Source: Nitrospirota bacterium
GTDB taxonomy: Bacteria; Nitrospirota; Thermodesulfovibrionia; Thermodesulfovibrionales; UBA9159
Direction: 5' to 3'
Assembly: GCA_021790195.1 (NCBI GenBank)
Contig: JAJYIF010000018.1
Span: 9,446 to 73,445 of the forward strand
DNA length: 64,000 nt
Under the pieces are notes generated by a model that did not search any database, had not been told where the DNA came from, and worked only from the letters and a program-made list of their open reading frames with translations. A program made the translations under genes and the position numbers. This document shows, one piece after another, positions 17,925 to 62,960 of the stretch (position 1 is its first letter; each line of letters begins with the position of its first letter).

Positions 17925-17929
17925 GTACG

Positions 17930-37801: not shown

Positions 37802-37830
37802 GGATTGTGTTTAGGAAAAAGGAGGGGGAA

Positions 37831-38418: not shown

Positions 38419-38440
38419 AGGATTGTATCTGGAGGAACAA

Positions 38441-38947: not shown

Positions 38948-39072
38948 GTGAGGAGCGAAATAAAAAAAGAAAGGAGAACAAGTCAAAGGCAGGAACAGGT
39001 CGAAAAGACCAAGGGGGTTTTAACGTTGCGCATTGAGCGTGCACATTACTAATTAAGAAGGAGGAGGAATAG

Positions 39073-44066: not shown

Positions 44067-44081
44067 AGCCTATCCTCCTCC

Positions 44082-45668: not shown

Positions 45669-46921
45669 TGCGTGCCTTCATATTCCGGCAGTTCGCGCGT
45701 TACAGGAAATCTGTTCAGTATCCACCTGAAAACGAGTATATGGAGCGTGACCATCGCCATGATCATCATAATCTCGGTCCCCGGCGGGATAATCCGGTGC
45801 AGATGTCCGGGCAAGTGCCAGTTGAAAGCGATCAGGTTGACGTTCACCCTGTTCAGCAGAATCCCGAACAGTGCAAACAGGGCGGAGAAACGTATCAGCT
45901 TCAGACTTTGAGATTTCACTCCTGCAGTGAACAAAACCATCGGCATTGCCACAAAACCGAGCAGCTCAACCAGGTACCAATAACCGTACGGAGTCGTCAG
46001 GAGTCCCCAGCGATCATCCTGTGCCAGGGCGAGCACCTTCAGGGCGAAGTAGACGTACATGGACAATGCGGCCCCTTTGCCTAAACTGAGGGTTAGCGAG
46101 GGCGTGCTCGATATGAACTTCGCGTCGCATTTGTCCCTGAAATAACGTACGGCCACGAAGGCAAGGAGAATCGCAAACGACATGGCGGCGTAGACCGCCG
46201 AGCTGAAAAACAACAGTGGAAGATGTGATGAGTACCATAAGGGGTGAAGCTTGCCCGGCGTCAGGAGATACATGGCGCCGAGGGCCGACTGGTGAACCGT
46301 AGAGAGGATAACCCCGCCGATAATCAGCGCTACTGTTGTGGAAACGGCCCATCTGTGAAGACGCCTCGATCCCAGCCACTCAAGGATGGCCGGAGAGAAC
46401 TCCAGAAGCTGCACAGTACAGTAAAGAGCTACGTGCCAGGCCACGATGAAGAGGACCGAAGACGGGCCGAGATTAACGAGCATCGGGTAATATATGCGCC
46501 ACGGCCGCCCCAGATCGATTAGCAGGTATGAGGCTGCGAAGGCGTACCCTAACATTCCGCCGAGCACGGCGAGACGCACCAGAGGCCTGTAAGACTTCAT
46601 GCCGAACAGGTAATAAGCCGCTGCCACGACAAAGCCCGCGGCGAACAGCGGCTCACCCGCGAAGATTCCCCAACTCAGGAGGAGTCCCCAGGGATATTCG
46701 CTGGTGGCGTCCATGACGCTCGCAAGTCCTCTTGTGTATCTCATTATGAACACGGGCGCTGAGGCGACAAGGATCGCAACGGCGGCCAGATTGAAAGGCG
46801 TCGCCAGAGAGCGGGCGTACTCGGATACGCTCATCCCCATGAACAGCTTATCCATGAACCAGTTGCGGAATTCCGCAGAAGACGCAGACGATTGAGCGGT
46901 GTATTGAATGCCGTTATCCAT
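45665..46921 (-). CDS. NrfD/PsrC/HmcC-type integral membrane quinone-interacting subunit
   Basis: Start chosen at MDNGIQY (AAGGAGGGG upstream); about 8-10 TM helices; sits next to a 4-cluster FeS subunit. Confidence 0.75.
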   Translation of the reverse strand: MDNGIQYTAQSSASSAEFRNWFMDKLFMGMSVSEYARSLATPFNLAAVAILVASAPVFIMRYTRGLASVMDATSEYPWGLLLSWGIFAGEPLFAAGFVVAAAYYLFGMKSYRPLVRLAVLGGMLGYAFAASYLLIDLGRPWRIYYPMLVNLGPSSVLFIVAWHVALYCTVQLLEFSPAILEWLGSRRLHRWAVSTTVALIIGGVILSTVHQSALGAMYLLTPGKLHPLWYSSHLPLLFFSSAVYAAMSFAILLAFVAVRYFRDKCDAKFISSTPSLTLSLGKGAALSMYVYFALKVLALAQDDRWGLLTTPYGYWYLVELLGFVAMPMVLFTAGVKSQSLKLIRFSALFALFGILLNRVNVNLIAFNWHLPGHLHRIIPPGTEIMMIMAMVTLHILVFRWILNRFPVTRELPEYEGTH

Positions 46922-47909
46922 TGTTCCCCTCCTTGTGCTGTCTTTCCGGTTCTGTCGGGTCGCCCTTGCGTGTTGCGGCATATATGAGACCGAAGATCGC
47001 AGGGAACGTCGTAAAGATCACCGGAACCGTGGACAGATAACCCTTTGTGAGCTCTATGAGCGGCTTCTTCGGGAGATTAGTCGGGAAGCCCAGTTGCTCG
47101 AAAGGCACGCCCGAGATATAGAGCCATGAAGTGCCCCCGACTTCGTGCTCGCCGTAGATGTGGCTTACATATTTATCGGGGTGCTCGGCGATTCTCTTCC
47201 GGGCAAGCTTCAGGAGATCCGCTCTCTTGCCGAAAGTGAGCGCGCCCGCCGGGCACGCTTCCGCGCAGCCGGGAAGTTGACCTTTCTTGATCCTGCCGTA
47301 ACAGAGAATGCACTTCATTATCTTGGGCTGCAGGGCGCTTTCATAGTCATAGCCAGGGATATTGAAGGGACACCCGATAACGCAGTAACGGCAGCCGAAA
47401 CAAAGCTTTTCATTATAAATGACCGGACCTTCTGGTGTTTTTGTATACGCATGGATGGGGCATGCCGTGGCGCACGCCGGCTCTAAACAGTGGTTGCACT
47501 GGATTTTCCGATAAACCGGCCTGCTAGGATCCCCAGGATTCTCATACCGGTTGACGACGGTGAGGGCTTTGGCATTGGGCCAGCGCCGCTCGTTGAAGAC
47601 TGAAGCGTCGTCAAAGGGTTTTTCGGGCGCCGGCATCCGATTGACTTCGTTGCACGCGCGTTCACAACTCCTGCAACCGACGCAAGCGGTGAAGTCCGTC
47701 AGCATCCCATAGCTTTTGGGCCAGCCCTCGAACTCGGGCGCGGCCCCGGCGCGGGCTGGGAGACCGAGCGCAGTGCAACCCGCCAGCATCGATATAGAAA
47801 GAAAGCTCCGCCTGGAGAGCCGGGCGGAACGCCCTGCGGCATCCTGCGCAGCGCCGCCACCGGGGTCCTCCGACCGGTTCTTCTTGATCTTGATCTTAAT
47901 CATAAGCAT
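46914..47909 (-). CDS. Tat-exported four-cluster [4Fe-4S] ferredoxin subunit (NrfC/PsrB/HmcB type)
   Basis: SRRSFLS twin-arginine motif; CVGCRSCERAC, CNHCLEPACATACP, CFGCRYCVIGCP, CILC...CAEACP. Confidence 0.85.
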   Translation of the reverse strand: MLMIKIKIKKNRSEDPGGGAAQDAAGRSARLSRRSFLSISMLAGCTALGLPARAGAAPEFEGWPKSYGMLTDFTACVGCRSCERACNEVNRMPAPEKPFDDASVFNERRWPNAKALTVVNRYENPGDPSRPVYRKIQCNHCLEPACATACPIHAYTKTPEGPVIYNEKLCFGCRYCVIGCPFNIPGYDYESALQPKIMKCILCYGRIKKGQLPGCAEACPAGALTFGKRADLLKLARKRIAEHPDKYVSHIYGEHEVGGTSWLYISGVPFEQLGFPTNLPKKPLIELTKGYLSTVPVIFTTFPAIFGLIYAATRKGDPTEPERQHKEGNNG

Positions 47910-47938
47910 GACCTCCTTATATTATCCGGCATTGTGCT

Positions 47939-48409
47939 TCATCTAGTCTGCGTGTGACATGTCTTGACGCATCCTTCCGGCGAGGAACCCAGTTCTCCGA
48001 CGCCGATGTGGCACTCGAAGCACTTTTTATGAAAAGCTACTTTCAGTCCAGGCATCTCCGGCGTATCGGGAGAATAGTCCGTATGGCATCCGCTGCACGG
48101 CAGAAAACCGTTTTTTACTGAAGCCTTGAATTGACCGGCGCTCAGCGAATGGCACTCGCCGCACATTGCCCTTGTCTTGTCGTTGTGCTGGTGATGACAC
48201 TTCCCGCAGCTGCCCGCCAGGGACACGTGCATCGAGTGGTCGAAAGTTACCGGGCCGTAGCGATTCTGAAGATACTTGATGATGATGACGCCGGGGGCGT
48301 CGGTTCCTTCAGCTCTCGCCGAAAAAACATCCGGGACCGTAATTATTCCGGCGGTTATCAGGATCGCGCAAACCAGAAGCAATAATGTTTTGACAGAGTG
48401 TCTTTTCAT
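47939..48409 (-). CDS. Small periplasmic class III (c3-type) multiheme cytochrome
   Basis: 156 aa; signal peptide; CGKCH, CGECH, CSGCH, CFECH plus CVKTCH (CxxxCH). Confidence 0.8.
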   Translation of the reverse strand: MKRHSVKTLLLLVCAILITAGIITVPDVFSARAEGTDAPGVIIIKYLQNRYGPVTFDHSMHVSLAGSCGKCHHQHNDKTRAMCGECHSLSAGQFKASVKNGFLPCSGCHTDYSPDTPEMPGLKVAFHKKCFECHIGVGELGSSPEGCVKTCHTQTR

Positions 48410-48443: not shown

Positions 48444-48836
48444 TTAAATTCGCTGCCCGGGTTCGCCGCCTTTTGCCTTCTTCATTTTTTTGCGGCCTGC
48501 GAAATAGGCTCGCACGGGACTCCAGCCTGCGGATGTCACGGTGGAGACCCCCTTGCTGAGAGGCACCGCCATCCCCTGGACAAAGAGGAACGGCAGGGCA
48601 GCGAGATAGAACACACCGAATACCGGGGCCAGCGCTATGTTACGGACCATCCGGGCGACCCTTTCTCTGCTCTGTGTTTTGAGGAACCCGGCGTCCTCTG
48701 CCGCGGATTTCAGTAGTCCCTGAAACGGTCTTGGCTTCAATATCTCGCAAAAGATGATAAAGCCGAGAACAGAAAGAAGCGCTATCCCATACTGCATTGC
48801 GTTGACGTTACTGACAAAGTCGAAAAGCGTGTGCAT
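48444..48836 (-). CDS. Small membrane protein, paralog family member P4
   Basis: 130 aa; TM helices; C-terminal GWSPVRAYFAGRKKMKKAKGGE shared with three upstream genes. Confidence 0.55.
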   Translation of the reverse strand: MHTLFDFVSNVNAMQYGIALLSVLGFIIFCEILKPRPFQGLLKSAAEDAGFLKTQSRERVARMVRNIALAPVFGVFYLAALPFLFVQGMAVPLSKGVSTVTSAGWSPVRAYFAGRKKMKKAKGGEPGQRI

Positions 48837-48901
48837 ACAGCACCTCCTTGTTTGTTATACACGGCCGCCGAGGACGGCCTGATATTGTGCTCCTTCCAGT
48901 C

Positions 48902-49276
48902 TCATTTCTTCCCGCGGCGCTTCCGCTTCTTCGAGTGTCCGGAGAAAAAAGAGATGGTGGGTTTGTACCTGAACCAAATGTGAGCAAGCGCGCTCCCCAC
49001 GAGTCTTTCGCATTGACAGCTCAGGAAGAACAGTATCCTGTAAAGCGCATACAGCAGGACAAAAATCACTGCGCCGATGCCGTAGGGAAAGGCCATGGAA
49101 AGCGCCAGAGCAAACAGGAACATAGGGATCAGGAGATAGCTTTCGGGGAGCTTGAAGTACCATTCCCTCCTGTCTCCCGGGAGGAAACCGTCAGCATTGA
49201 GAACAATCTTCTTGTTTTCGTTGGGTTCCCAATATGTCCCCTTCTTCACCTCTTGTTCGCCTCTAAAGAGAAACAT
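48902..49276 (-). CDS. Small membrane protein, paralog family member P3
   Basis: Start chosen at MFLFRGEQE (one nt after the P2 stop); KKGTYWEPNENKKIV..., FLFALALSMAFPYGIGAVIFV, WFRYKPTISFFSGHSKKRKRRGKK. Confidence 0.6.
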   Translation of the reverse strand: MFLFRGEQEVKKGTYWEPNENKKIVLNADGFLPGDRREWYFKLPESYLLIPMFLFALALSMAFPYGIGAVIFVLLYALYRILFFLSCQCERLVGSALAHIWFRYKPTISFFSGHSKKRKRRGKK

Positions 49277-49277
49277 A

Positions 49278-49724
49278 TCACACATCCTTTCTCCGCGCGG
49301 CCTGTGAGCTGGCTCTCTCACCCGTGATGCTCCGCGTTCCACGGCGGACGCTCTTCTTCCTCTTTTGTGATCCCGAGAAATTCGCCCTCGATGGGTTCCA
49401 ATTGAAGAACAGGCTTCCTCCGTCAAACCTGCTGCAAATCCTGATGCCGGTCATTGCGACGGCTGTGAGTCCTGCGATGAGGGGGACCAGCCATAAGATA
49501 AGAAACACGCCTATCCCGAAGAGCGGCAGGAACATCACGAACGTCATTCCGACGAGAGGCGCAAGGACGAGGAGGGCTGCTGGCGACATCTTCATGTAAC
49601 GTCGGTCCTCACCGCCCGGAAGTGCGCTGTCCTCAAGCACGTTGACCTGCCGGCCGTTCGCGGGATTCCAGTACGATCCCTTTCCTACGATCATGCCTCC
49701 CTTATAGATGATCATTTCCTTCAC
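49278..49724 (-). CDS. Small membrane protein, paralog family member P2
   Basis: 148 aa; GKGSYWNPANGRQV..., FLPLFGIGVFLILWLV, FNWNPSRANFSGSQKRKKSVRR. Confidence 0.6.
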   Translation of the reverse strand: MKEMIIYKGGMIVGKGSYWNPANGRQVNVLEDSALPGGEDRRYMKMSPAALLVLAPLVGMTFVMFLPLFGIGVFLILWLVPLIAGLTAVAMTGIRICSRFDGGSLFFNWNPSRANFSGSQKRKKSVRRGTRSITGERASSQAARRKDV

Positions 49725-49861
49725 TTCCTTTCATTGAATTTTCATATACCCCGCAGTCTCTGCTGCGGGAACCTTGCGTCATCGGGGTGCAGCGTGTTGA
49801 AGACCCCTGCCGACCCATGGGGTAAATACCCTGTCGTGTCGCACGAGCGAAGTGAGTTTGT

Positions 49862-50263
49862 TTATTCAACGTCGTTCCTGTTGACCTTCGTTTCCTGGCT
49901 CGCGGACTCTTCTCCTTTTCTCCTCTTCCTGACCTTCTTACCGGCCATGTAAGCCGTAGTGGGCGCATAACCGAAGGTAGCGCTCCTTCCGAGCATGTTC
50001 TTCACAAGGGTGAAACACATGAGTCCGGCCCCGCAAAGCGCTCCGACAAGAGCGATGAGCCAGACGAAGATCACGATCCCAAGCCCATAGGGGAATACTA
50101 CCGACAATGCCAGCGCGAAGAGAAAGAGGACAAAGAATGCGGTCCGTGTCCAGAGCCTTGACACCCTGTTTCGTGCGGACAGCCTTCCGCCCCTGTCGAG
50201 TTCGCCGCTGTCGGCAGATAATGCCGGCCCTTCTTCCATCGCCTTATGACCGTGTGCAACCAT
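49862..50263 (-). CDS. Small membrane protein, paralog family member P1
   Basis: 133 aa; FLFALALSVVFPYGLGIVIFVWLIAL, FGYAPTTAYMAGKKVRKRRKGEE. Confidence 0.6.
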   Translation of the reverse strand: MVAHGHKAMEEGPALSADSGELDRGGRLSARNRVSRLWTRTAFFVLFLFALALSVVFPYGLGIVIFVWLIALVGALCGAGLMCFTLVKNMLGRSATFGYAPTTAYMAGKKVRKRRKGEESASQETKVNRNDVE

Positions 50264-50959: not shown

Positions 50960-51976
50960 TCACACGACAAAGTAATTTATGCCTACGATAAACGCCATGG
51001 TCACGAAATATTGCACACCCCATTGAAAGTCGATCGCTCGGCCGACTCTGATTCTTGTTGCCCTGCTTTTCATAAGGGCGTTGTGGCTGTGATGTTCGAT
51101 CGCCGCCGCGAGGCCTCGGATTGTCCCACGGCCCTCATCGGCGACATAATCCCCGGATTCAGGACGCAGCATATCGACAGCTTCAAAGAGGGCCTCGGGC
51201 TTGCCGGTTAGAGCTACTGCGATATCGTCGCACACCTTTTCTTCCTCATCGACCAGCTTTCTGAATTCTATCATGGCAACAGGATTGTAAAACATCATCG
51301 CCCTGAGGATGTATGCAAAGATAAGCACCGGTTTTCTGCTCCTCCGGATGTGGCCGATTTCATGGGCAAAGGCCGCCTGCAGATGGTCGTTGCTGAAAGA
51401 TTTTACCATTCCCGAGGAGACATATATCCTGGGTTTCAAGCCTGTGGAGGAAAAGAGCTCAAGGTCATCGTCGTCAAGTATTTCAACGGCGTCTTCGCGG
51501 AGAGGCAGGTCCTCAAGCGCTTTTGCCACTTTTGTGGTCAGGGCTTCGTCTGCATCCTCATGGGCCGGTCCGGCAGCCCCCCGTATCTGTTCGATCATAT
51601 TAAATGCTATAGGCACGAGTTCTTGAATAACGAAGACGGCGGTGGACAGCGCCAATATGACGGCAAACGCCGCAAATACTGGAATGCCGTCCCACAGCTC
51701 TAAGAGAAACCATTTATTGCTGTCCAGCAGAGTGTCCAGCCTGAAATACATCCCTCCTCTGCCGGGGAATAGCAGTTGATAGAGCGGAAAGGATACGACC
51801 GGCAAGAGGATGACCATGAAGCGAAACCTTTGCTTGACATGAGGCGTTTTCATGTCCCACGCGATGAGCGCACAGTCAACGAGAACAGAGGCAATTATTG
51901 AATGAAGCACGGTTTGAACAACATACATTCCCAAATACGAGGAAATGAAAGTATTCACATTCCAAAGCGTCTTCAT
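50960..51976 (-). CDS. M56 (BlaR1-like) membrane metallopeptidase
   Basis: Start chosen at MKTLWNV; TM helices; zinc motif AFAHEIGHIRR and downstream EEKVCDDIA. Confidence 0.65.
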   Translation of the reverse strand: MKTLWNVNTFISSYLGMYVVQTVLHSIIASVLVDCALIAWDMKTPHVKQRFRFMVILLPVVSFPLYQLLFPGRGGMYFRLDTLLDSNKWFLLELWDGIPVFAAFAVILALSTAVFVIQELVPIAFNMIEQIRGAAGPAHEDADEALTTKVAKALEDLPLREDAVEILDDDDLELFSSTGLKPRIYVSSGMVKSFSNDHLQAAFAHEIGHIRRSRKPVLIFAYILRAMMFYNPVAMIEFRKLVDEEEKVCDDIAVALTGKPEALFEAVDMLRPESGDYVADEGRGTIRGLAAAIEHHSHNALMKSRATRIRVGRAIDFQWGVQYFVTMAFIVGINYFVV

Positions 51977-52086
51977 AAACTTACCTAATAATAACAAATT
52001 TTTGCTGCGGAATATCTGTGGAAGATAAATATGAAGGAAAGCCCAAACAGGCAAAGGACTGCATCGTGCCCGGGAGGAGCAAAGAA

Positions 52087-53025: not shown

Positions 53026-54408
53026 ATGAAGAAACTCTGGGGCGGAAGGTTCAAGGAAAATACTTCAGAGACTGTGGAGGCCTTCACTGAGTCCATATCT
53101 TTCGACAGGCGTCTCTGGAAATACGATATTGAAGGCAGTATCGCCCACGCCAGGATGCTCGGCAGACAGGGGATAATCTCAAAGCGTGACTCCGATAAAA
53201 TAGTGTGCGGACTTAAAGAGATAGCGCTGGAAATCGAGAACGGCAAATTCAGGTTTATTCCGGAACTCGAAGACATCCACATGAACATCGAGGCGGCCCT
53301 GACAAAGAAGATAGGCCCTGCGGGAAAGAGGCTTCATACTGCACGGTCCAGAAACGACCAGGTCGCCCTCGACCTCAGGCTCTATCTGCGCGACGAAACC
53401 AATCAGATAATCTCCTTGATAACACTTTTTGAAAAGGGCCTGATAGAGATTGCTGATAACCACATCGACGCAGTGATGCCCGGATACACCCATACACAGC
53501 GGGCCCAGCCTGTGCTCCTTTCGCATCATTTCCTCGCCTATGTCGAGATGTTCGAGAGGGACAAGGAAAGGTTCGTGGATTGCCTCAGGCGGATAAACAG
53601 GCTCCCTCTCGGCGCCTGCGCGCTGGCGGGGACGTCCCTGCCTATAGACAGGGCTTATGTGGCGAAACTCCTCGGTTTTGCCTCGGTTGCGGAAAACAGT
53701 ATAGATGCGGTGTCGGACAGGGACTTCTGCGTCGAATTCCTTTCCGCCTGTTCGATATTCATGGTTCACCTTTCCAGAATGGCCGAAGAGGTTGTGCTCT
53801 GGGCCTCGGAGGAGTTCTCCTTTATCGAGCTTCCCGATGCCTTTACCACAGGCTCCAGCATTATGCCGCAGAAGAAGAACCCCGATGTGGCCGAGCTGGT
53901 CCGCGGAAAGACCGGCAGGGTCTTCGGCTCTCTTGTCTCGCTCCTGACGGCCCTGAAGGGGCTGCCGCTTTCTTATAACAGGGACATGCAGGAGGACAAG
54001 GTCCAGGTCTTCGACGCGACCGACACCGTGAAGGCCTGCCTTGTGGTGATGAACGAGATGTTCCCCCTGATACGGTTCGATAAGAGGAGGATGTTCTCGG
54101 CAGCCTCGGAGACTTTCGCGACCGCCACGGATATCGCCGAGTATCTGGTGAGAAAAGGGATGCCGTTCAGGGAGGCCCATGAAGTGACCGGCAGGATCGT
54201 CCGTTACTGTATCGACAACAGGGAACGCCTTGGCGACCTGAAGATGGAAGACTTCAGACGGTTTTCGCCTCTTTTTTCCCGGGATGTCTACCAGTGTATT
54301 TCGGTTGACGGCTCCATCAAGCTGAAAAAGTCGAGGGGCGGGACGGCGAAGGAAGAAGTGAAGAAACAGATAAGCCGGCTCAGAAGGACAGTGACAAGTA
54401 ATAAGTGA
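53026..54408 (+). CDS. argH: Argininosuccinate lyase
   Basis: 460 aa; WGGRF start, TARSRNDQ, GSSIMPQKKNPD signature. Confidence 0.92.
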   Translation: MKKLWGGRFKENTSETVEAFTESISFDRRLWKYDIEGSIAHARMLGRQGIISKRDSDKIVCGLKEIALEIENGKFRFIPELEDIHMNIEAALTKKIGPAGKRLHTARSRNDQVALDLRLYLRDETNQIISLITLFEKGLIEIADNHIDAVMPGYTHTQRAQPVLLSHHFLAYVEMFERDKERFVDCLRRINRLPLGACALAGTSLPIDRAYVAKLLGFASVAENSIDAVSDRDFCVEFLSACSIFMVHLSRMAEEVVLWASEEFSFIELPDAFTTGSSIMPQKKNPDVAELVRGKTGRVFGSLVSLLTALKGLPLSYNRDMQEDKVQVFDATDTVKACLVVMNEMFPLIRFDKRRMFSAASETFATATDIAEYLVRKGMPFREAHEVTGRIVRYCIDNRERLGDLKMEDFRRFSPLFSRDVYQCISVDGSIKLKKSRGGTAKEEVKKQISRLRRTVTSNK

Positions 54409-55400
54409 TAAGTGATAAGTTGAGTAAGGCGGAATTGAATTTCCCGGGTTACGGCAAAGCTGCAGGCAATGCATTATTGCTTGTTACCCGTTACTCGTTA
54501 TTATTTGTTCTTGTGCTTGCTCTGCTTTCCTGCGGTAGGAAGGGGCTTCCGACATTAAAGGCCTTCGAAAAGCCGGAAAGACCCACCGGACCGGCCGCGG
54601 TCCATAAAGAAGACAGGATTATCCTGACCTGGTCTTATCCCGGCAATCTGCGGTCTTCTATAAAAGGGTTTCAGGTCCTGAGGTCCGAAGGCCAGGGTTT
54701 TGAAAGAGAGGCCTTTGTCAAGAGCGCTCAAAGTTCCTTTTCCGATGAGTCCTTCAAGTTCAATGTGACCTACGAATATAAGGTCGTTGCACAGAATATG
54801 AGGGACATCCTGAGCGCAGACTCGGACATTGTCAATATGACGCCGTCCCCTCTGCCCCCGCCGCCTGAAGATGTGCGCTTTGAAATAAAGCCGGGCGGCG
54901 TTGAGCTGGAGTGGAAAAGCTCGGGCACGGACGTTTGCTACAACGTTTATAGGAGTATAGAAAAAAGCAAGTTTGACAACGGTCCGCTTAACACAGAGCC
55001 TGACTGCGCTACTTCTTACATGGACAATTTCTTGTCGCCTGAGAGGTCTGTTTACTATATTGTAAGACCTCTGCACAATACCCCCTCGAAGGACGAAGGT
55101 TATCCCTCAAAAGAGGTCGATGTTAACCCCGCGAATTTTGTGCCTTTGCCGCCTTCAGACGCAAGGGTCGTAAAGACTGAAGACAAGACATATCTTGTAT
55201 GGAAGGAGAGCCCGGAGTCGTGGGTGAGGGGATATCGCGTTTACCGCAAAATCGAGGGAGAAGAGGATTTCACCTTCCTCGGCGAGGCAGTGACGCCCGC
55301 CTTTGCCGATACCGCGAAGATTGGGAAAAAGGCAAGGTACATGATAAAGGCGCTCGGGCCGTCCGCCGAGAGCGAGCCGCTCGTTGTCGATGTCCCCTGA
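54405..55400 (+). CDS. Lipoprotein with three FN3-like repeats
   Basis: 331 aa; lipobox ALLSC followed by GRKGLP; repeats ending W...GF.V.R / YNVYRS / YRVYRK; non-ATG start overlapping the argH stop (exact start uncertain). Confidence 0.55.
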   Translation: MISDKLSKAELNFPGYGKAAGNALLLVTRYSLLFVLVLALLSCGRKGLPTLKAFEKPERPTGPAAVHKEDRIILTWSYPGNLRSSIKGFQVLRSEGQGFEREAFVKSAQSSFSDESFKFNVTYEYKVVAQNMRDILSADSDIVNMTPSPLPPPPEDVRFEIKPGGVELEWKSSGTDVCYNVYRSIEKSKFDNGPLNTEPDCATSYMDNFLSPERSVYYIVRPLHNTPSKDEGYPSKEVDVNPANFVPLPPSDARVVKTEDKTYLVWKESPESWVRGYRVYRKIEGEEDFTFLGEAVTPAFADTAKIGKKARYMIKALGPSAESEPLVVDVP

Positions 55401-55652
55401 CAGGATGGGGTTTATGATTTAGGCTTGCATCATTGCAGGCGGCAATATCGTTCTCGCTTCGTTCAGCCGCGCGATAGATGCTTGAGTAAATTCGTCGCTT
55501 GACAAATCGTAGTTATTTGCTATTGTTAATTTGGAATGACTATTTTGGGCGGGCGATATTTTCCAGTCTTTTCATTCGAGAAAGAAAGCCGCATTTTTGT
55601 GCCAAAAAGCGCAATCTATTTTTCGGAATGGTTTTTTTCGCTACGGTCAATG

Positions 55653-55678
55653 CCGCGATTGGGTGAAAACAATCGCGG
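55653..55678. promoter_or_regulatory. Perfect 9-bp inverted repeat just upstream of a sigma54 promoter
   Basis: CCGCGATTG-ggtgaaaa-CAATCGCGG. Confidence 0.35.
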
Positions 55679-55706
55679 CCTGACCGGGCAAATGCTCAGG
55701 TCATGA

Positions 55707-55722
55707 TGGCATGGCGGTTGCA
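55707..55722 (+). promoter_or_regulatory. Sigma54 (-24/-12) promoter upstream of the large multiheme lipoprotein gene
   Basis: TGGCATggcggTTGCA matches TGGCAC-N5-TTGCW at nearly all conserved positions; 177 nt upstream of ATG 55899. Confidence 0.6.
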
Positions 55723-55898
55723 GTTAGCGAGATGAAGACATTTAAATAAGGGGGTGGTGGAGAGGTGATTGTTGCAGTAGCTGTCAACTCTGATCCGTAA
55801 TGTTTATTCAAAACAACAAATGATCTTGTCATTATCAATCTGAGTGTGTGTTTATTGTTGAATTTTTTATGACAAACCAACAGAAAGAGGAGGAAGAA

Positions 55899-58739
55899 AT
55901 GAAGCAATGTTCTGTTTCAGGCATTAAGCTTTTCGTGTTAGCAGTCTTGGTTCTTTCGGCTTTTTCTCTTATGTTAGGTTGTAGCGGTGACGCCGGCTCT
56001 ACGGGTCCCGCGGGTCCCGCAGGACCTTCTGGTCCAGCGGCGCCCACTACAGGAACTATTTCCGGGACCGTGACGACATCCACGGGTGTTGCCCTTGAAG
56101 GCATTCAGGTGAGCGCTTTCAGCAACAAGACGGTCTCAAAGGTCGCCTCAGACAGCGCTGAGAATTATAGGCAGGCTATGGCCCTTCAGGCGAGTGCTAC
56201 CCCGGTTGCAACGGCGACCACCGACAGCAGCGGTAACTACTCAATGAACAACGTGCCGCCGGGTAGTTGCACTATAAACTTTTTCGATCCTAACGGCCAT
56301 TTCACAATAGGGTCTATAAACAATGTTCAGGTGATAGCCGGCTCTTCGATCATAGCAAACGCCGGCATGGGAAGCGCAACGCCTGTGACCGAGTCGGCCG
56401 GCGGTCAGACTTCGGTCGCAGTGGCGAGCTCCGACAATGAAGTGGGATATGGCAACACGATATCTCTTACCGCATCCGCCACAAGTCCGATATCCGGAGC
56501 TACGTTGACTTATACATGGTCAGGGGCGACGCAAGGCAGCACTCCTACAACCGCTACCGCGACCATGCCTACCCTTGCCAAGGCTATGGGCGGCACTCCC
56601 GCGCCGTCAAACGACCCCGGAGGATATGTAGCTCCGCAGCCGATGGAAAACCGTTTCGGAGTGCTCCCTACGACCGCAGACACGCGCGGCACCGCAAGTC
56701 CTAATGTTACCGTGACCGACGGTATGGGCGGCTCGGTATCCGTCACAGTTACGCTCTACGCAACCGGCGTCCAGCCCGGGGTTATGGATGTCGCTATAGG
56801 CGTCCCCGTCTATCTCAACAGCGGTCACGACAGCGGTAATTCCTGGTCGATGACCGTTCCTACCGGCTCATCGGCGACCCTTTTCAACGCCAATACGCGG
56901 AACGCGTGGTTTAAGCCCGATATCACCGGCAAATATACGTTAACGGAAGGCTCCAACTCAATGGCTATATATGCCGGCAAATGGGTTGGAGTCATAGCAA
57001 ACGGCGGTTATGTTACAAAGACCGTCACGGCGGACGAGGTCGGGATATGGGCCGGCGCAGCAGGAACATATACCAACTGGCCTTTTGTCACGCCTGATTC
57101 AGGCTGCACGACATGCCATCTGAACAATGTTGTAGTCAACGGCCTGACGGCCGTCGATGAGTTCACGCCGTGGGCCCAGACCGCGCACGCCACGTTCTTC
57201 TCCCGCGGATTGGAAGGAATTACGTCTAATAACGGCACTTGTCTCACCTGCCACACCGTCGGCTACGATCTGTCGCCGAGCGCCGTCAATGACGGTTTCG
57301 ACGACATGGCCAAGTTCGAGAACTTCATCTATGCAAAGACTAGCACTACCAACCCTAACGCCTGGCAGAACATGCTGATCAAGGCCCCGAGGACCGCGAA
57401 GGTCTCGAATATACAGTGCGAGAACTGTCATGGTCCGCAGGACACCGGACCTAACGGCGCACATATCTCGGGGCTGTCCGGAGGGACCTCCGGCGCCGTC
57501 GGAGGAACAAGGGTCAACTATTCTGCGGAGGTATGCGCTACGTGTCACGCCTCCGGCACCGGACATCACTTCTATTCGGAGTGGGTTAATTCCATCAATC
57601 CGGAGTCTAGTTCGGCCAATAAGGGCCACTCCCATCTGGGGCAGATCGATGCCACCGGTTATAGCGGTCACGCACAGTCGACCAACGTCTCATGTTCGAG
57701 GTGCCACACGGCAGAGGGATTCACAGCATATGTTGACCAGCTTTCAGCCGGCAATCCGGCGGTGCTTCCTTCAGACGCCATCGTATGGACCAAGAACAAC
57801 GCGCATGTACAGACCTGCACAGGGTGTCATGACCCGCATGACGATACGAACCCGAACCAGCTGCGTCTGTATGATTCGATACCGATGACCATGGCCGGTT
57901 TCGGCGTATCCGGTATGGGGAAGGGAGCTGTTTGTGTGGCCTGTCATAATATCAGGAATGGTGTACAGTGCAACCTGCCTCTGACCTCTGTGGGCACATG
58001 TCCGAGCGGCGGCGTTCAGAGCGGCGCGCCTTTCCTTCACGAGGACAACGATCCTGTTGCTGCTACTTATATGGATACTCCTCATGACAACGCCTCCGCC
58101 GACGTCTTCATGGGCCGCAACGCCTTCTTTGTGAGCGGACTTCCGATGCTTTCGAAGCATGCCGCAGTCGAAGATACCTGCGTGGGCTGTCACATGACGA
58201 ACCAGCCGGCGACTCATCTGTCTCACGGAGCAACTGCTGTCAGCTCCCATCAATTCTATATTCTGGACTCGGACAGGAAGATGTCCACTATTCTTCCCGG
58301 ACGCCTTGGTCCGAATGGCGTCGCTTTCTGTGCGAACTGCCACAGCACCAGCGTTGACGGCGAGGCGCTGGTTACAACTGTCGAAAACAGTCTCGCGACT
58401 CTTGCGGATAAGATGGCGGCCAATCTTAAGTCCAGGGTATTAGGAACGACCATCTACGTCGGCAGTAGCCACACTGCGGTCGCGGTAAGCGACTCGACGG
58501 TCGTGACCTTGCCTGAAGACTCGACGAACTTCAGTTTCACTAACGGCTCGACAACGGTTTCAGGCGGTCTTTCTACCATAACCACCGATTCTGCCGGCAC
58601 TACGCTGGTGTTCAGTACGAACGACATATTGAAGAAGGGCCTGTGGAACTACATACTCATCTACAGAGACCAGAGCAAGGGCATCCACAACCCGACCTTT
58701 GTCAATACGGTTCTGAGCAATACGCTCGCTCAGTTCTGA
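55899..58739 (+). CDS. Large multiheme c-type cytochrome lipoprotein (9 CxxCH) with collagen-like linker and CarboxypepD_reg-like domain
   Basis: Start at ATG 55899 after AGAGGAGG; lipobox MLGC; GPAGPAGPSGP; TGTISGTVTT...SGNYSMNNVPPGSC; CTTCH, CLTCH, CENCH, CATCH, CSRCH, CTGCH, CVACH, CVGCH, CANCH. Confidence 0.8.
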   Translation: MKQCSVSGIKLFVLAVLVLSAFSLMLGCSGDAGSTGPAGPAGPSGPAAPTTGTISGTVTTSTGVALEGIQVSAFSNKTVSKVASDSAENYRQAMALQASATPVATATTDSSGNYSMNNVPPGSCTINFFDPNGHFTIGSINNVQVIAGSSIIANAGMGSATPVTESAGGQTSVAVASSDNEVGYGNTISLTASATSPISGATLTYTWSGATQGSTPTTATATMPTLAKAMGGTPAPSNDPGGYVAPQPMENRFGVLPTTADTRGTASPNVTVTDGMGGSVSVTVTLYATGVQPGVMDVAIGVPVYLNSGHDSGNSWSMTVPTGSSATLFNANTRNAWFKPDITGKYTLTEGSNSMAIYAGKWVGVIANGGYVTKTVTADEVGIWAGAAGTYTNWPFVTPDSGCTTCHLNNVVVNGLTAVDEFTPWAQTAHATFFSRGLEGITSNNGTCLTCHTVGYDLSPSAVNDGFDDMAKFENFIYAKTSTTNPNAWQNMLIKAPRTAKVSNIQCENCHGPQDTGPNGAHISGLSGGTSGAVGGTRVNYSAEVCATCHASGTGHHFYSEWVNSINPESSSANKGHSHLGQIDATGYSGHAQSTNVSCSRCHTAEGFTAYVDQLSAGNPAVLPSDAIVWTKNNAHVQTCTGCHDPHDDTNPNQLRLYDSIPMTMAGFGVSGMGKGAVCVACHNIRNGVQCNLPLTSVGTCPSGGVQSGAPFLHEDNDPVAATYMDTPHDNASADVFMGRNAFFVSGLPMLSKHAAVEDTCVGCHMTNQPATHLSHGATAVSSHQFYILDSDRKMSTILPGRLGPNGVAFCANCHSTSVDGEALVTTVENSLATLADKMAANLKSRVLGTTIYVGSSHTAVAVSDSTVVTLPEDSTNFSFTNGSTTVSGGLSTITTDSAGTTLVFSTNDILKKGLWNYILIYRDQSKGIHNPTFVNTVLSNTLAQF

Positions 58740-58767
58740 CAGTGGGCCGTAGTTTGTAATCTCGTCC

Positions 58768-58805
58768 GGTTTACCGGCGGACACTGACAAGTCCGCCGGT
58801 AAACC
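58768..58805 (+). terminator. Strong hairpin after the large cytochrome gene
   Basis: GGTTTACCGGCGGAC-actgacaa-GTCCGCCGGTAAACC (15-bp perfect stem) followed by tgttctgctg. Confidence 0.6.
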
Positions 58806-58869
58806 TGTTCTGCTGTAGGAGGAGCATTTGCCGCTCCTTCGAATCGATCTAAACGCTTGACAAAAATTC

Positions 58870-58898
58870 TTGACAGCGAAGACGATTGTCCATATACT
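58870..58898 (+). promoter_or_regulatory. Near-consensus sigma70 promoter for the beta-barrel and periplasmic cytochrome genes
   Basis: TTGACA (58870-58875), 17 bp, TATACT (58893-58898). Confidence 0.55.
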
Positions 58899-58919
58899 TT
58901 TTGCTATGTTGTACATTTG

Positions 58920-60269
58920 ATGAATAAACGCGTAATGAAAGGGGGGAGCTGTTTGAAAAGAAACCGATTGTTGCTTGGAAGAGAGGGCAGGCCGCAGTTA
59001 TTGCGGATGGTAATTATGATTGCGGCGCTTCTTGGTCTTCAGTCATTTTTTCCGCCTGCCTCTTCGGCGCTCACTCTTAACGGAGAGTCGAACACTTATC
59101 TGAGTTTCAGGGAGACCGCGGACAAGAGTAAAATCGTTCCCCTCTATGAATATCTCGACCTGTCTCTCGACAACATAGGCGACAACAGGGTCTCTTTCCA
59201 TTCAAGCGGATGGGGGAAGGCGGATTTGGGGGACGAAAGCTATGGCAAGAGATACGACGCCGACCTTTTGTACGCATACCTGAGTTTCAAGAACGATAAG
59301 AACAATACCACAATCAATCTGGGAAGGGTCCTTGTCTTTGAAGGCGTTGCTGCGGAAAAGGTCGACGGCTTTTACGCAAGGACCGACATAAAGTACGGTT
59401 TCGGCGCTTCCGCGTATGTAGGGAGGCCTGTCGAGACCGAGTCTAACGGCGTTTCAGGCGATCTTATTTACGGCGGAAGGCTGTCTTACGAAATCCCTTC
59501 CATCGTTGTCCTGGGGGCATCATATCTCAAGGAGAACAGCGGCAGCTCCGATTTCAGGGAGGAGGAAGGCGCGGACATATGGCTCAACCCCGTGAGACAA
59601 GTGGTCATAACCGGAAGGTCTTCGTACAATTCGATGACAAACGGCTGGATGGAGCACACCTATTTCCTTTCCTTGGGGCCGTTCAGTAATCTCAGGCTGA
59701 ACTCAGAGGTATCGTGGATAAGCTACAAGGATTACTTCTCGTCTGCTACCACCGACGTTTTCAAACTGATGACGGGCATCCTGGACCCGGCTGAGAAGGT
59801 CCTTATACTAGGCCAGGAGGCCGCATATTCCATAAACGAAAATTTGACCGCCTCGGCCGACTACAAACATTACGATTATGATCTGGCTGGAAACGCGAAT
59901 TATTATGGAGGCAAGCTTTCTTACGCTGTCCTGGGGAAAGGGGGCGCCGGAGTTTCCTTTCACCGGATGAGCGGCGCCACAGACAAGCTGAGATATAACG
60001 AGTACAGGGTTTATGGTTTTAAGAAATTCGGCAGGGCTGATCTTACGCTTGACTTCCTCGACGTTGACTACGACAGCGAAATAGACGGCATGAAGAATAC
60101 CTATGCGGCTTCATTAGCCATAGGCTATAATTTCAGCAACAAAGTGAAGACTGTCGCCGACGTGGATTATTCCCGCAATCCCAATTTTAACAGGGACGTA
60201 AGAACGTTTCTGAGTCTTGTCTGGCAGTTCGATTCCGCGTTCGGCGGAGAAACAAAGGGGGTAAGATGA
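58920..60269 (+). CDS. Predicted outer-membrane beta-barrel (porin-like) protein
   Basis: Signal peptide (...IAALLGLQSFFPPASSA); alternating-hydrophobicity strands rich in Y/G/S/N; near-C-terminal RTFLSLVWQF; start uncertain (ATG 58920, ATG 58935 or TTG 58953). Confidence 0.5.
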   Translation: MNKRVMKGGSCLKRNRLLLGREGRPQLLRMVIMIAALLGLQSFFPPASSALTLNGESNTYLSFRETADKSKIVPLYEYLDLSLDNIGDNRVSFHSSGWGKADLGDESYGKRYDADLLYAYLSFKNDKNNTTINLGRVLVFEGVAAEKVDGFYARTDIKYGFGASAYVGRPVETESNGVSGDLIYGGRLSYEIPSIVVLGASYLKENSGSSDFREEEGADIWLNPVRQVVITGRSSYNSMTNGWMEHTYFLSLGPFSNLRLNSEVSWISYKDYFSSATTDVFKLMTGILDPAEKVLILGQEAAYSINENLTASADYKHYDYDLAGNANYYGGKLSYAVLGKGGAGVSFHRMSGATDKLRYNEYRVYGFKKFGRADLTLDFLDVDYDSEIDGMKNTYAASLAIGYNFSNKVKTVADVDYSRNPNFNRDVRTFLSLVWQFDSAFGGETKGVR

Positions 60270-60712
60270 AACACATGAAGACGATGACACTTGCGGCGCT
60301 CCTGGCTGTTTCTTTATTAAGTGTTTACTCTTGCGCCGGCACAAACAGTCTGGCGAAGACGCATCCGGTCGAGATCAAGGAGCTTGCTGAAGCTGTCTGC
60401 AGCAATTGTCATACTAATGAATGGGCCGCCTTTGACCATGTGGGCGACTTCCTGACGAGACATAAGGCTTTTGCGGCCCAGAAGAAGCAAGCTTGCGAAG
60501 TCTGTCATGCCGAGTCCTTTTGCACGGACTGCCATGCCAGCAAGGCCGGACTAAGCCCGAGCGACAGGTATAAGGACTCCCCGGAGATCTCCTATCCCCA
60601 CAGGGGAGATTATCTGACCCAGCACATGATCGACGGCCGGGTCAACCCGGCCCTCTGCATGAAGTGCCACGGCCGCCAGAACAATGAGAGGTGCAGAGCA
60701 TGCCACAAATGA
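60266..60712 (+). CDS. Small multiheme c-type cytochrome (5 CxxCH), probable lipoprotein
   Basis: 148 aa; VYSC lipobox-like; CSNCH, CEVCH, CTDCH, CMKCH, CRACH; ATGA overlap with the barrel gene. Confidence 0.8.
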   Translation: MKHMKTMTLAALLAVSLLSVYSCAGTNSLAKTHPVEIKELAEAVCSNCHTNEWAAFDHVGDFLTRHKAFAAQKKQACEVCHAESFCTDCHASKAGLSPSDRYKDSPEISYPHRGDYLTQHMIDGRVNPALCMKCHGRQNNERCRACHK

Positions 60713-61635
60713 ACAGAATGCTGATATCGGTTTTTTTTCTCTTCCTGGGACTTGTTCTGTTGGGCGGCTGCGGCAGTTCACCCAACTCGTCGTCTACAAC
60801 GGTCAGCCCGGTCCAGGCGGCACATCCGGCAGGCTGGCTCCCTGCGGGGCATGTCGCAGCCGCGGAATCAAGCTTGTCGTCCTGCACCCAGTGCCATGGC
60901 AGCGATTTTTCGGGAGGGATTTCGACGGTTGCCTGCACCAAGTGCCACCTGGGCAATGAGCAAGTCATCCATCCTCTCGATTGGGACAATCTTGTGGGGA
61001 CAAAACACGCGGAATATGTCAGGAGCAAAGGCGACTCTGCCTGTTCAAATATATATTGTCATGGCGCGGACTTGAACGGGGTGTCCGGCAGCGGCCCGTC
61101 GTGTTCGAGCTGTCACCTTGGCGGCAAGGGTTCAGTTCATCCTCAGGATTGGGGATCGCTTGCCTATTCGAAGCACTCTGCCTATGTGGCCCAATATGGA
61201 ACAGCAGCCTGCTCGAACGTGGTCTGTCACGGCGCGGACCTGAGCGGAGTGACCGACAGCGGCCCGTCGTGTTCCAGTTGTCATCTCGGCGGGCCGAACT
61301 CTGTTCATCCCCAGGACTGGGGGGCTTTGACTTACGTAAGACACATGGCCTATGTCTCCCAGAACGGAACAGCGTCCTGTGCCAACGGCGTTTGCCATGG
61401 CGCGGACCTGAGCGGAGTGACCGACAGCGGACCGTCGTGTTCCAGCTGTCACCTCGGCGGGCCAAGCTCTGTTCATCCCCCTGACTGGGCAAGTGATTTC
61501 CTGCAGCACGGCACGTATGTAAATACTAACGGTGCAGGCTCTTGCAGAAATGCAGTCTGCCACGGACCGGACCTGCAGGGAGTTGCGGCAAGCGGGCAGA
61601 GCTGTTTCCTTTGCCATCAATTTTCCATTCCATAA
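60709..61635 (+). CDS. Repeat-built multiheme cytochrome lipoprotein: CxxxxCH...CxxCH modules (10 heme motifs)
   Basis: ATGA-coupled start MNRMLISVFF; lipobox LGGC; CTQCH, CTKCH, then four units each with CSNIYCH/CSNVVCH/CANGVCH/CRNAVCH plus CSSCH/CSSCH/CSSCH/CFLCH. Confidence 0.8.
   Translation: MNRMLISVFFLFLGLVLLGGCGSSPNSSSTTVSPVQAAHPAGWLPAGHVAAAESSLSSCTQCHGSDFSGGISTVACTKCHLGNEQVIHPLDWDNLVGTKHAEYVRSKGDSACSNIYCHGADLNGVSGSGPSCSSCHLGGKGSVHPQDWGSLAYSKHSAYVAQYGTAACSNVVCHGADLSGVTDSGPSCSSCHLGGPNSVHPQDWGALTYVRHMAYVSQNGTASCANGVCHGADLSGVTDSGPSCSSCHLGGPSSVHPPDWASDFLQHGTYVNTNGAGSCRNAVCHGPDLQGVAASGQSCFLCHQFSIP
60967..61635 (+). repeat. Tandem 168-bp (56-codon) coding repeats, about 4 units
   Basis: Equivalent CAT (His of VHPxDW) codons at 60970, 61138, 61306, 61474, i.e. 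an exact 168-bp period; units 2 and 3 nearly identical in protein. Confidence 0.85.
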
Positions 61636-61650
61636 GTGGGATAGTGTGTA

Positions 61651-61695
61651 AAGGTGGATTGAAGTACGGAAGATCTCCGGACTTCAGTCCACCTT
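61651..61695 (+). terminator. Long hairpin plus T-rich tail after the cytochrome operon
   Basis: AAGGTGGATTGAAGT ... ACTTCAGTCCACCTT followed by ctttgtc. Confidence 0.55.
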
Positions 61696-61820
61696 CTTTG
61701 TCGGAGTTGAAGGTCCTCATAGGGTCACTTATGAAGTATATTGACTTTAAAATGATGCATCAGTTAGTCTAAACGCAATCTTTTTCCCTCTTGATCATGG
61801 TACAACATTTCACACTGTAG

Positions 61821-62414
61821 ATGGCCTGGATGAAAGACAAGATACTCAAAGCCTTTGAAGAGAGCATCAGCGTAAAAGACAGATTCGCAAAGGAGAGCGT
61901 CGAGACTATAGTCGAGGCGGCGAGACTTATTGCCGATGCCTTCAATGACGGCAGAAAGCTGCTGCTTTTCGGCAACGGGGGAAGCGCGACGGATGCCTCT
62001 CACATAGCCGCAGAGTTCGTGAACCGTTTCAAGAGAGAGAGGCCCGGGCTTCCGGCCATTGCCCTCAACACCGATATGGCTGTCATAACTTCGATAGCCA
62101 ACGACTATGACTACTCGGAGATTTTTGCGAGGCAGCTTAAGTCGATCTCGGAAGAGGGGGATGTTATAATCGCGATCAGCACGAGCGGCGGCTCGAACAA
62201 TATTTTGAAGGCCATGGATGTCGCTAAGCGAAGAAAACTCAGGACCATTGTTTTTACAGGGACCAAGGGAGAAAAGCTGGCCTCTAAAGCAGAATATGCC
62301 TTCATTGTGCCTTCAGATAACACCCCGCGGATACAGGAGACGCATATTACCCTCGGTCATGTCCTCTGCCAGATGGTGGAAGAGATACTCTTTGAGTCCC
62401 CGAGGAAGAGATGA
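61821..62414 (+). CDS. gmhA: D-sedoheptulose-7-phosphate isomerase (SIS domain)
   Basis: 197 aa; LLLFGNGGSATDASHIAAEF, AISTSGGS motifs. Confidence 0.8.
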   Translation: MAWMKDKILKAFEESISVKDRFAKESVETIVEAARLIADAFNDGRKLLLFGNGGSATDASHIAAEFVNRFKRERPGLPAIALNTDMAVITSIANDYDYSEIFARQLKSISEEGDVIIAISTSGGSNNILKAMDVAKRRKLRTIVFTGTKGEKLASKAEYAFIVPSDNTPRIQETHITLGHVLCQMVEEILFESPRKR

Positions 62415-62456
62415 TCGGGCCTTCGTAAAGTCCGTCTTTCTGCAGGGGCCGCGAGA

Positions 62457-62960
62457 ATGATAATACTTGGTATGGACCCGGGATTGGCAAACACGGGGTT
62501 TGGGGCCATCAGGTGCGAAAGAAAGGTCTCCTCACTGCTGAGATGCGGGTATATCAGGACCTCGCCGAGGGAGCACGTCTCCAAGAGACTCTGCCAGATC
62601 CATTCCGATTTGAACTATCTGATGCGGACGCTGCGGCCCGACCTTGTGGCCATAGAGAATGTGTTCTCTCTTGTAAGATATCCGAGGGCCGGGATATTGT
62701 TGGGGGGCGTTATGGGCGTCATCTATCTGTCTGCTTCCCAGAATAGCGTGCCCATGACCGAAATCACGACAAGAGAGGTGAAGAACGCCCTGGTCGGATA
62801 TGGTGCGGCCGATAAGGGACAGGTGAAAAAAGCGGTCAAGAAGCTCCTGAATATTTCCGAGGTCAAGTCCTTCCACGCTTCCGATGCACTTGCGGTCGCG
62901 CTGGCGGCTTTTTACAGAAACCCGGAAAAGACGATCCACCACAGAGGAATAGATGAATGA
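62457..62960 (+). CDS. ruvC: Holliday junction resolvase RuvC
   Basis: 167 aa; ILGMDPGLANTGFG start, C-terminal HASDALAVAL. Confidence 0.9.
   Translation: MIILGMDPGLANTGFGAIRCERKVSSLLRCGYIRTSPREHVSKRLCQIHSDLNYLMRTLRPDLVAIENVFSLVRYPRAGILLGGVMGVIYLSASQNSVPMTEITTREVKNALVGYGAADKGQVKKAVKKLLNISEVKSFHASDALAVALAAFYRNPEKTIHHRGIDE

Follow-up and report, generated by a model that had tools for sequence, protein, structure and literature searches.

An Ext-type porin-cytochrome gene set beside a predicted outer-surface cytochrome in an uncultured Nitrospirota bacterium

A stretch of 64,000 nucleotides from a Nitrospirota bacterium (assembly GCA_021790195.1, contig JAJYIF010000018.1, positions 9,446 to 73,445), referred to here as the window, carries four co-oriented open reading frames (ORFs) on the + strand at window positions 55899–61635, which we call A, B, C and D. 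Together they probably represent an Ext-type (ExtBCD-like) porin-cytochrome conduit encoded beside its own outer-surface cytochrome in an uncultured member of the Nitrospirota. As judged from the genes themselves, such a conduit would most likely carry the electrons of respiration through the outer membrane, towards minerals or away from them. An original prediction, made from the DNA letters alone, had already described a porin-cytochrome gene set at this place, and that description is now strengthened on three sides: a beta-barrel is predicted for B, the order B-C-D is found in 41 related loci, and B and C are homologous to parts of the genetically characterised ExtABCD conduit of Geobacter sulfurreducens.

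The four genes largely agree with the first description, and the corrections concern starts and junctions. Gene A (55899–58739, +) encodes a c-type cytochrome lipoprotein of 946 aa, and ORF and motif counts confirm both this length and its nine CxxCH motifs, with a lipobox reading LMLGC. Gene B (58953–60269, +) encodes an ExtB-family outer-membrane beta-barrel with about 22 predicted strands. Its reading frame is open from 58857, and the ATG at 58920, from which a barrel of about 450 aa had been proposed, would give 449 aa; the barrel is upheld by structure prediction, but the start is most likely the TTG at 58953 (438 aa), because of a GGGGGAG Shine-Dalgarno site and the public gene calls. 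Gene C (60266–60712, +) encodes an ExtC/ExtF-family lipoprotein of 148 aa, in which the five CxxCH motifs expected of the small five-heme cytochrome were counted and the lipobox reads VYSC. Gene D (60700–61635, +) encodes the lipoprotein cytochrome with ten heme motifs (six CxxCH and four CxxxxCH, the number first reported), and its start is corrected, most likely to the ATG at 60700 for a protein of 311 aa. The barrel and the two cytochromes after it had been said to be coupled through ATGA junctions. This is right for the first junction, where the ATG of C overlaps the TGA of B as ATGA at 60266–60269 and C is predicted to be translationally coupled to B, but not for the second, where C and D share a 13-nt overlap that is not ATGA.

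B contains no heme motif (CxxCH) and has no sequence match in Pfam, NCBIfam or PDB, while its own family is large and unannotated: a word-indexed search returned 277 hits, and an exhaustive profile search matched 674 clusters at 50% identity, 190 of these below 1e-30. An AF2 model built from 54 family members (pLDDT 80, pTM 0.68) consists of a signal helix followed by 22 beta strands, and the best Foldseek matches in PDB are all outer-membrane barrels (MOMP, the FimD/PapC ushers, the OccD/OccK porins, AlgE and FepA; E about 1e-9). The structure check that the original prediction had asked of this ORF therefore found a barrel fold, and by this modelling B is an outer-membrane barrel with about 22 beta strands; by sequence it is a homologue of ExtB. 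When B, C and D were searched by sequence in PDB, nothing meaningful came up, so that there is no structural template by which to name these proteins, and no member of the three families has a solved structure. Some members of the B family are built differently: P0250 and P0253 carry a fused N-terminal class-I-like one-heme domain in a Cyc2-like layout, and P0220 and P0223 have a long linker and a fused C-terminal four-heme c3/c7-like domain.

The Ext system supplies the closest characterised relatives. ExtABCD of G. sulfurreducens (GSU2645-2642) comprises a periplasmic twelve-heme cytochrome (ExtA), an outer-membrane protein (ExtB) and two lipoprotein cytochromes with 5 and 12 hemes (ExtC and ExtD), and is needed for electrode reduction; ExtC and ExtF are 49% identical paralogues (Table S2), and extBCD occurs without a neighbouring extA in some Desulfuromonadales (PMC6148476). 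As Ext reference we used the JGI metagenome contig L047, which matches the published GSU2644 cloning primer exactly (PMC6148476 supplement). It encodes, in this order, an 11-CxxCH ORF ending in PPVRQR and a stop codon, an ORF of 443 aa, a five-heme lipoprotein of 155 aa and the start of another lipoprotein cytochrome, and the end of the 11-CxxCH ORF matches the GSU2645 reverse primer with two synonymous changes. Judged by its sequence, this contig belongs to a close relative of strain PCA and carries extA'-extB-extC-extD', the heme counts and lipoboxes being those published. In BLASTP, B aligned with this ExtB at full length (30% identity over 420 aa, E 6e-46) and C with its ExtC at 36% identity (E 8e-29) with all five CxxCH motifs aligned; the two reference proteins also match all 41 related loci. 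The earlier impression that the individual proteins look unlike those of Geobacter is thus contradicted for B and C, which are full-length homologues. The N-terminus of D resembles that of ExtD weakly, through the lipobox followed by the CxxCHG...CxxCH layout.

At the level of gene order the set resembles ExtABCD in having a barrel, a five-heme lipoprotein and a multi-heme lipoprotein in the same succession. It differs in its Nitrospirota host, in the replacement in position of ExtA by an upstream, sigma54-driven and OcwA-like nine-heme lipoprotein, and in D, which has ten motifs in two-heme repeats compared with the 12 hemes reported for ExtD; B has about 22 predicted strands against 18 given for ExtB (PMC6148476), the two prediction methods being different. 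ExtEFG likewise begins with a barrel followed by a five-heme lipoprotein, and some extE clusters have an extra ten-heme lipoprotein cytochrome upstream, as A stands before B and C (PMC6148476). By its published description, however, ExtEFG is set apart by its third gene, ExtG being a periplasmic twelve-heme protein and D a lipoprotein repeat cytochrome.

Besides its five CxxCH motifs, C holds five further His residues (H33, H58, H66, H112 and H120) that are conserved across 44 family members including ExtC, and these are enough for bis-His ligation of all five hemes within about 115 mature residues. D begins with an N-terminal two-heme module and continues with four repeats of 56 aa, each composed of one CxxxxCH and one CxxCH motif plus two more His. 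The underlying DNA was recognized by Tandem Repeats Finder as a tandem repeat inside D (61057–61489, +; 168 nt, 2.6 copies, 80% identity) that encodes two-heme units. The CxxxxCH...CxxCH pattern occurs four times in D, and the corresponding domain model TIGR01904 is matched weakly, at 23 bits against a cut-off of 27. Homologues of D range from 140 to 683 aa, with a repeat number of one to eight or more.

Conservation of the gene set was followed in a locus scan with one genome per species (GTDB). The 41 related loci come nearly all from metagenome-assembled genomes (MAGs) of Nitrospirota sampled in peat, soil, aquifer or groundwater and deep mine, and two come from Desulfuromonadaceae or deltaproteobacterial MAGs. 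This answers the earlier call to examine related genomes: in every one of the 41 loci the gene after B encodes a five-heme protein of about 147 aa and the next one a CxxCH/CxxxxCH lipoprotein of 140–683 aa, and in most of them one or two lipoprotein cytochromes with 9–10 hemes (700–1050 aa) precede B-C-D. The genes around the module differ wholly between genomes, including unrelated housekeeping genes, and the module is therefore self-contained. A search from the Desulfuromonadaceae copy of B led to named cultured members of the Geobacteraceae. In the cultured Geomonas silvestris the order is an A-like lipoprotein, a PpiC-type isomerase, B, C and D, with identities to the window proteins of 46% (B), 49% (C) and 48% (D); its A-like protein (900 aa, nine CxxCH) has a CarboxypepD_reg and an MtrC-type domain and is 28% identical to A, and a sigma54 activator is encoded upstream of the locus. 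The module is conserved as a unit in Nitrospirota and Geobacteraceae.

This pattern bears directly on the question of whether the four genes are no more than neighbours without functional connection, which we regard as very improbable. Such a view could point to the apparently separate promoters of A and B-C-D and to the many loci in which other large cytochromes stand in place of the A-type gene. It is opposed by the invariance of B-C-D in all 41 loci with short or overlapping junctions, and by the large lipoprotein cytochrome that precedes B-C-D in most loci and in Geomonas despite wholly different flanks. The number of units varies: two loci carry two tandem B-C-D units, each with its own large cytochrome (L013, 8001–10616 and 14546–16245; L037, 3178–5283 and 9648–11829), and in others a tandem pair of large cytochrome genes precedes a single B-C-D (L012, L020 and L032). 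Beside the large cytochrome genes of two Nitrospirota loci and of Geomonas lies an ORF of about 115 aa without known domain (L048, 5370–5717; L049, 9246–9596; L046, 3706–4053); between A and B the window showed no counterpart.

The large cytochrome A consists of a signal peptide and lipobox (residues 1–28), a disordered Gly/Pro linker (29–50), a beta-sandwich region (about 52–400), a helical heme domain (about 400–850) and a C-terminal part (850–946) with a long helix, a small sheet and two helices, the model placing helices at 821–847, 910–922 and 932–945 (AF2, pLDDT 87). Its 94 homologues are found in Nitrospirota, Anaeromyxobacter, Myxococcaceae, Acidobacteriota and Chloroflexi. In Foldseek the N-terminal part is matched by Ig-like domains of displayed surface proteins (pilins of Gram-positive bacteria, invasin and S-layer proteins), and the combination of lipobox, Gly/Pro linker and Ig-like domains supports surface display of A. 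Pfam assigns it a CarboxypepD_reg domain and PF22113 (MtrC/MtrF domains II/IV; 49.5 bits against a cut-off of 30, in four stretches). When the family profile is compared with PDB, the best match to the heme domain is OcwA (6I5B, E 4.5e-7), followed by NrfA and the octaheme nitrite reductases, while MtrF gives a signal region only (E 0.08). By these profiles the likeness of the A heme domain to OcwA and the NrfA superfamily is no less than its likeness to MtrC. The alignment with OcwA runs through seven stretches in the same order and includes seven of the nine heme motifs and a C-terminal helix motif G-[IV]-H-N; the matched pairs (A family/OcwA) are CENCHG/CEQCHG, CTxCHDPHD/CQVCHASHD, CVGCHM/CVDCHM and the C-terminal GIHN/GVHN helix. 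In OcwA, hemes 2 and 5 are five-coordinate and of catalytic type. OcwA is the nine-heme cell-surface iron-oxide reductase of Thermincola potens, as shown experimentally (PMC6703420), and structurally it is grouped with NrfA, c554 and MccA, not with MtrC (PMC6703420, PMC9250108). A may therefore be an OcwA-like nine-heme cytochrome on a lipid-anchored stalk, a weak likeness drawn at the profile level. Both proteins have nine CxxCH motifs and appear to be located at the cell surface. OcwA, however, comes from a Gram-positive source with no outer membrane or barrel, and the lipid anchor, the Gly/Pro linker and the roughly 350 aa of Ig-like domains are additions found in A.

The same profile matches to NrfA and octaheme nitrite reductases raise another reading, in which A is a surface or periplasmic enzyme of that family for soluble substrates such as nitrite, hydroxylamine, sulfite or tetrathionate, B-C-D only feeds it with electrons or serves otherwise, and the set has no part in mineral respiration. 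OcwA does reduce nitrite and hydroxylamine in vitro, and A is set apart from B-C-D by a sigma54 promoter of its own and a hairpin, yet OcwA has very little activity on nitrite next to true NrfA (PMC6703420). Moreover, the CxxCK motif of the NrfA active-site type is absent from A, its lipid anchor, linker and Ig-like stalk are typical for displayed surface proteins, and across phyla the gene consistently stands beside an outer-membrane barrel and an ExtC-type cytochrome. We consider an enzyme for soluble substrates improbable, and favor A as the outer-surface cytochrome of the conduit.

An envelope with two membranes is confirmed for this organism by genes for outer-membrane assembly in the window, encoding TamB-like (1327 aa), BamA/Omp85 (888 aa) and then SurA-N-like (181 aa) proteins (13941–20596, +). 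None of the lipoproteins A, C and D has Asp at position +2 after the lipid-modified Cys. Lipoproteins without Asp at +2 are sent to the outer membrane in Escherichia coli, and by this rule, which we infer to hold in Nitrospirota, all three would be sorted there. In the Geobacter model ExtC and ExtD are outer-membrane lipoproteins (PMC6148476). The original prediction had called C and D periplasmic; this placement is an assumption.

On these grounds a mechanism can be proposed in which C, in or at the barrel, would form the membrane-spanning heme wire. Standard beta-barrel geometry gives a 22-strand barrel a width of about 4 nm between C-alpha atoms, and the plug inside the 22-strand TonB-dependent transporters has about 150 aa; mature C, at about 125 aa, is similar in size to such a plug, hence the suggestion that it may sit inside the barrel, where five hemes in a chain would span about 4–5 nm. 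Natural fusions of B-family barrels to one-heme or four-heme cytochrome domains support the pairing of barrel and cytochrome. D would lengthen the heme wire on one face, and A, switched on separately via sigma54, would be the terminal surface oxidoreductase for insoluble or extracellular acceptors such as Fe(III)/Mn(IV) oxides, humics or partner cells. Electrons from the quinol pool would reach the conduit via inner-membrane complexes and periplasmic cytochromes. An Hmc-like membrane redox operon lies 8 kb from the module (43353–48409, - strand) and encodes a four-heme periplasmic cytochrome (156 aa, 47939–48409), an HmcB-like FeS protein (403 bits against a cut-off of 420), an HmcC/NrfD-like protein, a 13-heme cytochrome (44082–45668) and a cytochrome b. 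Such an operon could pass electrons from the quinone pool to periplasmic cytochromes. The 13-heme cytochrome has a weak match to the ExtA fragment of the reference contig (23% identity, E 4e-6).

If ExtABCD, which serves electrode reduction, and OcwA, which reduces iron oxides, are taken as models, outward flow (reduction) is the more likely direction. The same conduit could also run inward and bring into the periplasm electrons supplied by extracellular Fe(II) or Mn(II), by reduced humics, by a cathode-like mineral or by a syntrophic partner; we hold this to be unlikely, though less so than the enzyme reading of A. Porin-cytochrome conduits are reversible in principle, MtoAB and PioAB are inward-running examples, and the one-heme N-terminal fusions of B-family barrels recall the layout of the Fe(II) oxidase Cyc2. 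The relatives were sampled from groundwater, peat, soil and deep mine, and porin-cytochrome complexes have been proposed for metal-oxidising (Mn) lithotrophic Nitrospirota (PMC9040806). On the other hand, the studied relatives of both halves, ExtABCD and OcwA, act in the reducing direction (PMC6148476, PMC6703420), the window contains anaerobe-type genes (2-oxoacid:ferredoxin oxidoreductase subunits and the Hmc-like complex), and no link to an oxidase or to carbon fixation was seen within the window.

Several observations weigh against an Ext-type conduit with an OcwA-like surface cytochrome. The likeness of A to OcwA is weak and stands at the profile level only, and OcwA, MtrC and OmcA lie outside the top 50 Foldseek matches of full-length A; Ig-like domains of the N-terminal part dominate this list, so that the comparison covers the stalk rather than the fold of the heme domain. 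Against the 93 aa of ExtD present in the reference, the match of D is weak (E 0.035), its counterpart in locus L004 reaching E 1e-7. Between 55400 and 61800 there is no gene for a periplasmic twelve-heme protein of the ExtA type. The ExtB and ExtC references are taken from the metagenome contig of a close Geobacter relative and not from strain PCA, as the two synonymous primer mismatches indicate. The Hmc-like operon was rejected as a conserved partner of the module, with one weak FeS match in the 41 loci.

Among other known systems, MtrCAB shares the general design, in which a barrel in the outer membrane is combined with a heme wire inside it and a lipoprotein cytochrome on the surface, and A exceeds the PF22113 threshold. 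MtrB has 26 strands, and the ten hemes of MtrC and OmcA are divided between two five-heme domains (II and IV) that have beta-barrel domains at their flanks. B is smaller than MtrB, as had been stated (about 22 predicted strands, 400 aa), no ten-heme protein of the MtrA/DmsE type is present, and A has nine hemes and PDB profile matches to OcwA and NrfA, not to MtrC/MtrF. The proposed check for homology to the MtrAB and PioAB families was made through MtrB and MtrA/DmsE signals: MtrB is outside the top 50 Foldseek matches of B and B has no sequence match to it, while TIGR03508 does not match C or D and matches A at 21.6 bits against a cut-off of 192. Membership in the MtrAB/PioAB type was rejected on the lack of an MtrB signal and of an MtrA/DmsE signal. 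Cyc2 is comparable as an outer-membrane barrel working with c-type heme, and some B-family members have the one-heme N-terminal fusion. B itself lacks this fusion, having no CxxCH, and is larger (about 22 against 16 strands).

The transcription of the module was first described as two units, with sigma54 driving A, a terminator behind it and a sigma70 promoter driving B-C-D. A -24/-12 promoter-like element of the sigma54 type, TGGCATGGCGGTTGCA (TGGCAT-N5-TTGCA), is located at 55707–55722 (+), 177 nt upstream of A, and is the sole match of this type on both strands of the window, where 0.06 are expected. Nine independent related loci have the motif as well, in each case on the coding (+) strand and 5' of large cytochrome genes, with zero matches on the - strand of the related loci in 602 kb. 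This recurrence gives good comparative support for sigma54 control of the outer cytochrome, in agreement with the first description. Two sigma54 activators are encoded in the window (33976–35331 and 35664–37025), and nothing ties either of them to the promoter of A. Further upstream, about 200 nt before the sigma54 motif, the long leader or intergenic region of A holds a second sigma70-like site (TTGACA-16-TATTGT with extended TG, 55499–55526, +).

Behind A, a hairpin at 58768–58805 (+) has a perfect 15-bp stem and an 8-nt loop, and its fold is stronger than that of shuffled sequence (z = -4.6). The stem of the proposed terminator is real in this sense, but its tail TGTTCTGCTG has no canonical U-tract or T-run and the terminator scan made no call; it is possibly a terminator or an RNA-stability element. 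An Rfam scan of 54000–62500 found no RNA element. The near-consensus sigma70-type site claimed before the barrel is present at 58870–58898 (+) as TTGACA-17-TATACT, agreeing at 11 of 12 positions and being the best such site in 55300–62000; its TTGACA hexamer is duplicated upstream of B (58857 and 58870). A strong site of this kind (at least 10 of 12 positions) is found upstream of B in 4 of the 41 related copies, namely in the closest relative (L003) and three others, so that an internal promoter is plausible here and is not a family feature. Two transcription units are plausible.

The kind of system described here is already known, since published Ext-type porin-cytochrome conduits include extBCD without extA and extra lipoprotein cytochromes upstream of extE. 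What appear to be undescribed so far are its spread in Nitrospirota, the Ig-stalked OcwA-like partner, the conserved sigma54 site and the repeat cytochrome of variable length. Our literature search found no paper linking ExtABCD with any name beginning in Nitrospir, and surveys of MAGs give only generic porin-cytochromes for Thermodesulfovibrionia and other groups. The module points to Geobacter-style respiration of metals, humics or electrodes, or to electron uptake, in widespread uncultured Nitrospirota of soils, permafrost peat, aquifers and deep mines, and therefore has a bearing on models of iron and carbon cycling. It also makes the poorly understood ExtB/ExtC pair a conserved core far beyond the Desulfuromonadales, as the 674 clusters matching the B profile indicate. 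The OcwA-like outer cytochrome suggests an exchange of surface reductases between one- and two-membrane bacteria, and since cultured Geomonas silvestris has the same four genes, the proposed architecture is open to direct test. Going further, and tentatively, a horizontally mobile, self-contained module of four parts (an ExtB barrel plugged by ExtC, a length-adjustable lipoprotein of two-heme repeats, and an Ig-stalked OcwA-like reductase under sigma54) might be the main extracellular electron-transfer device of many uncultured Nitrospirota in soil, peat and groundwater, although we think this rather doubtful at present. If true, it would link a Gram-positive surface reductase to a Gram-negative outer-membrane conduit, and the repeat number of D would set the reach of the wire.

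Other genes of the window deserve brief mention. A lipoprotein of 331 aa with repeated fibronectin-like segments (54405–55400, +) begins in an overlap with the argH stop codon and lies 5' of the 500-nt intergenic region before A; it was found beside the module in no other locus. Four consecutive universal-stress-protein genes (about 37235–39597, +) are followed by a YeeE/YedE-like sulfur-transport gene (39584–40555, +), and this group is flanked by a PAS-sigma54 activator and by a pair of dCache histidine kinase and GerE-type response regulator. Upstream of the four-heme cytochrome gene are four small ORFs of 127–145 aa with no known domains (48444–50263, -), and close to these lies a BlaR1-like M56 peptidase gene with a partner of 181 aa (50960–52054, -).

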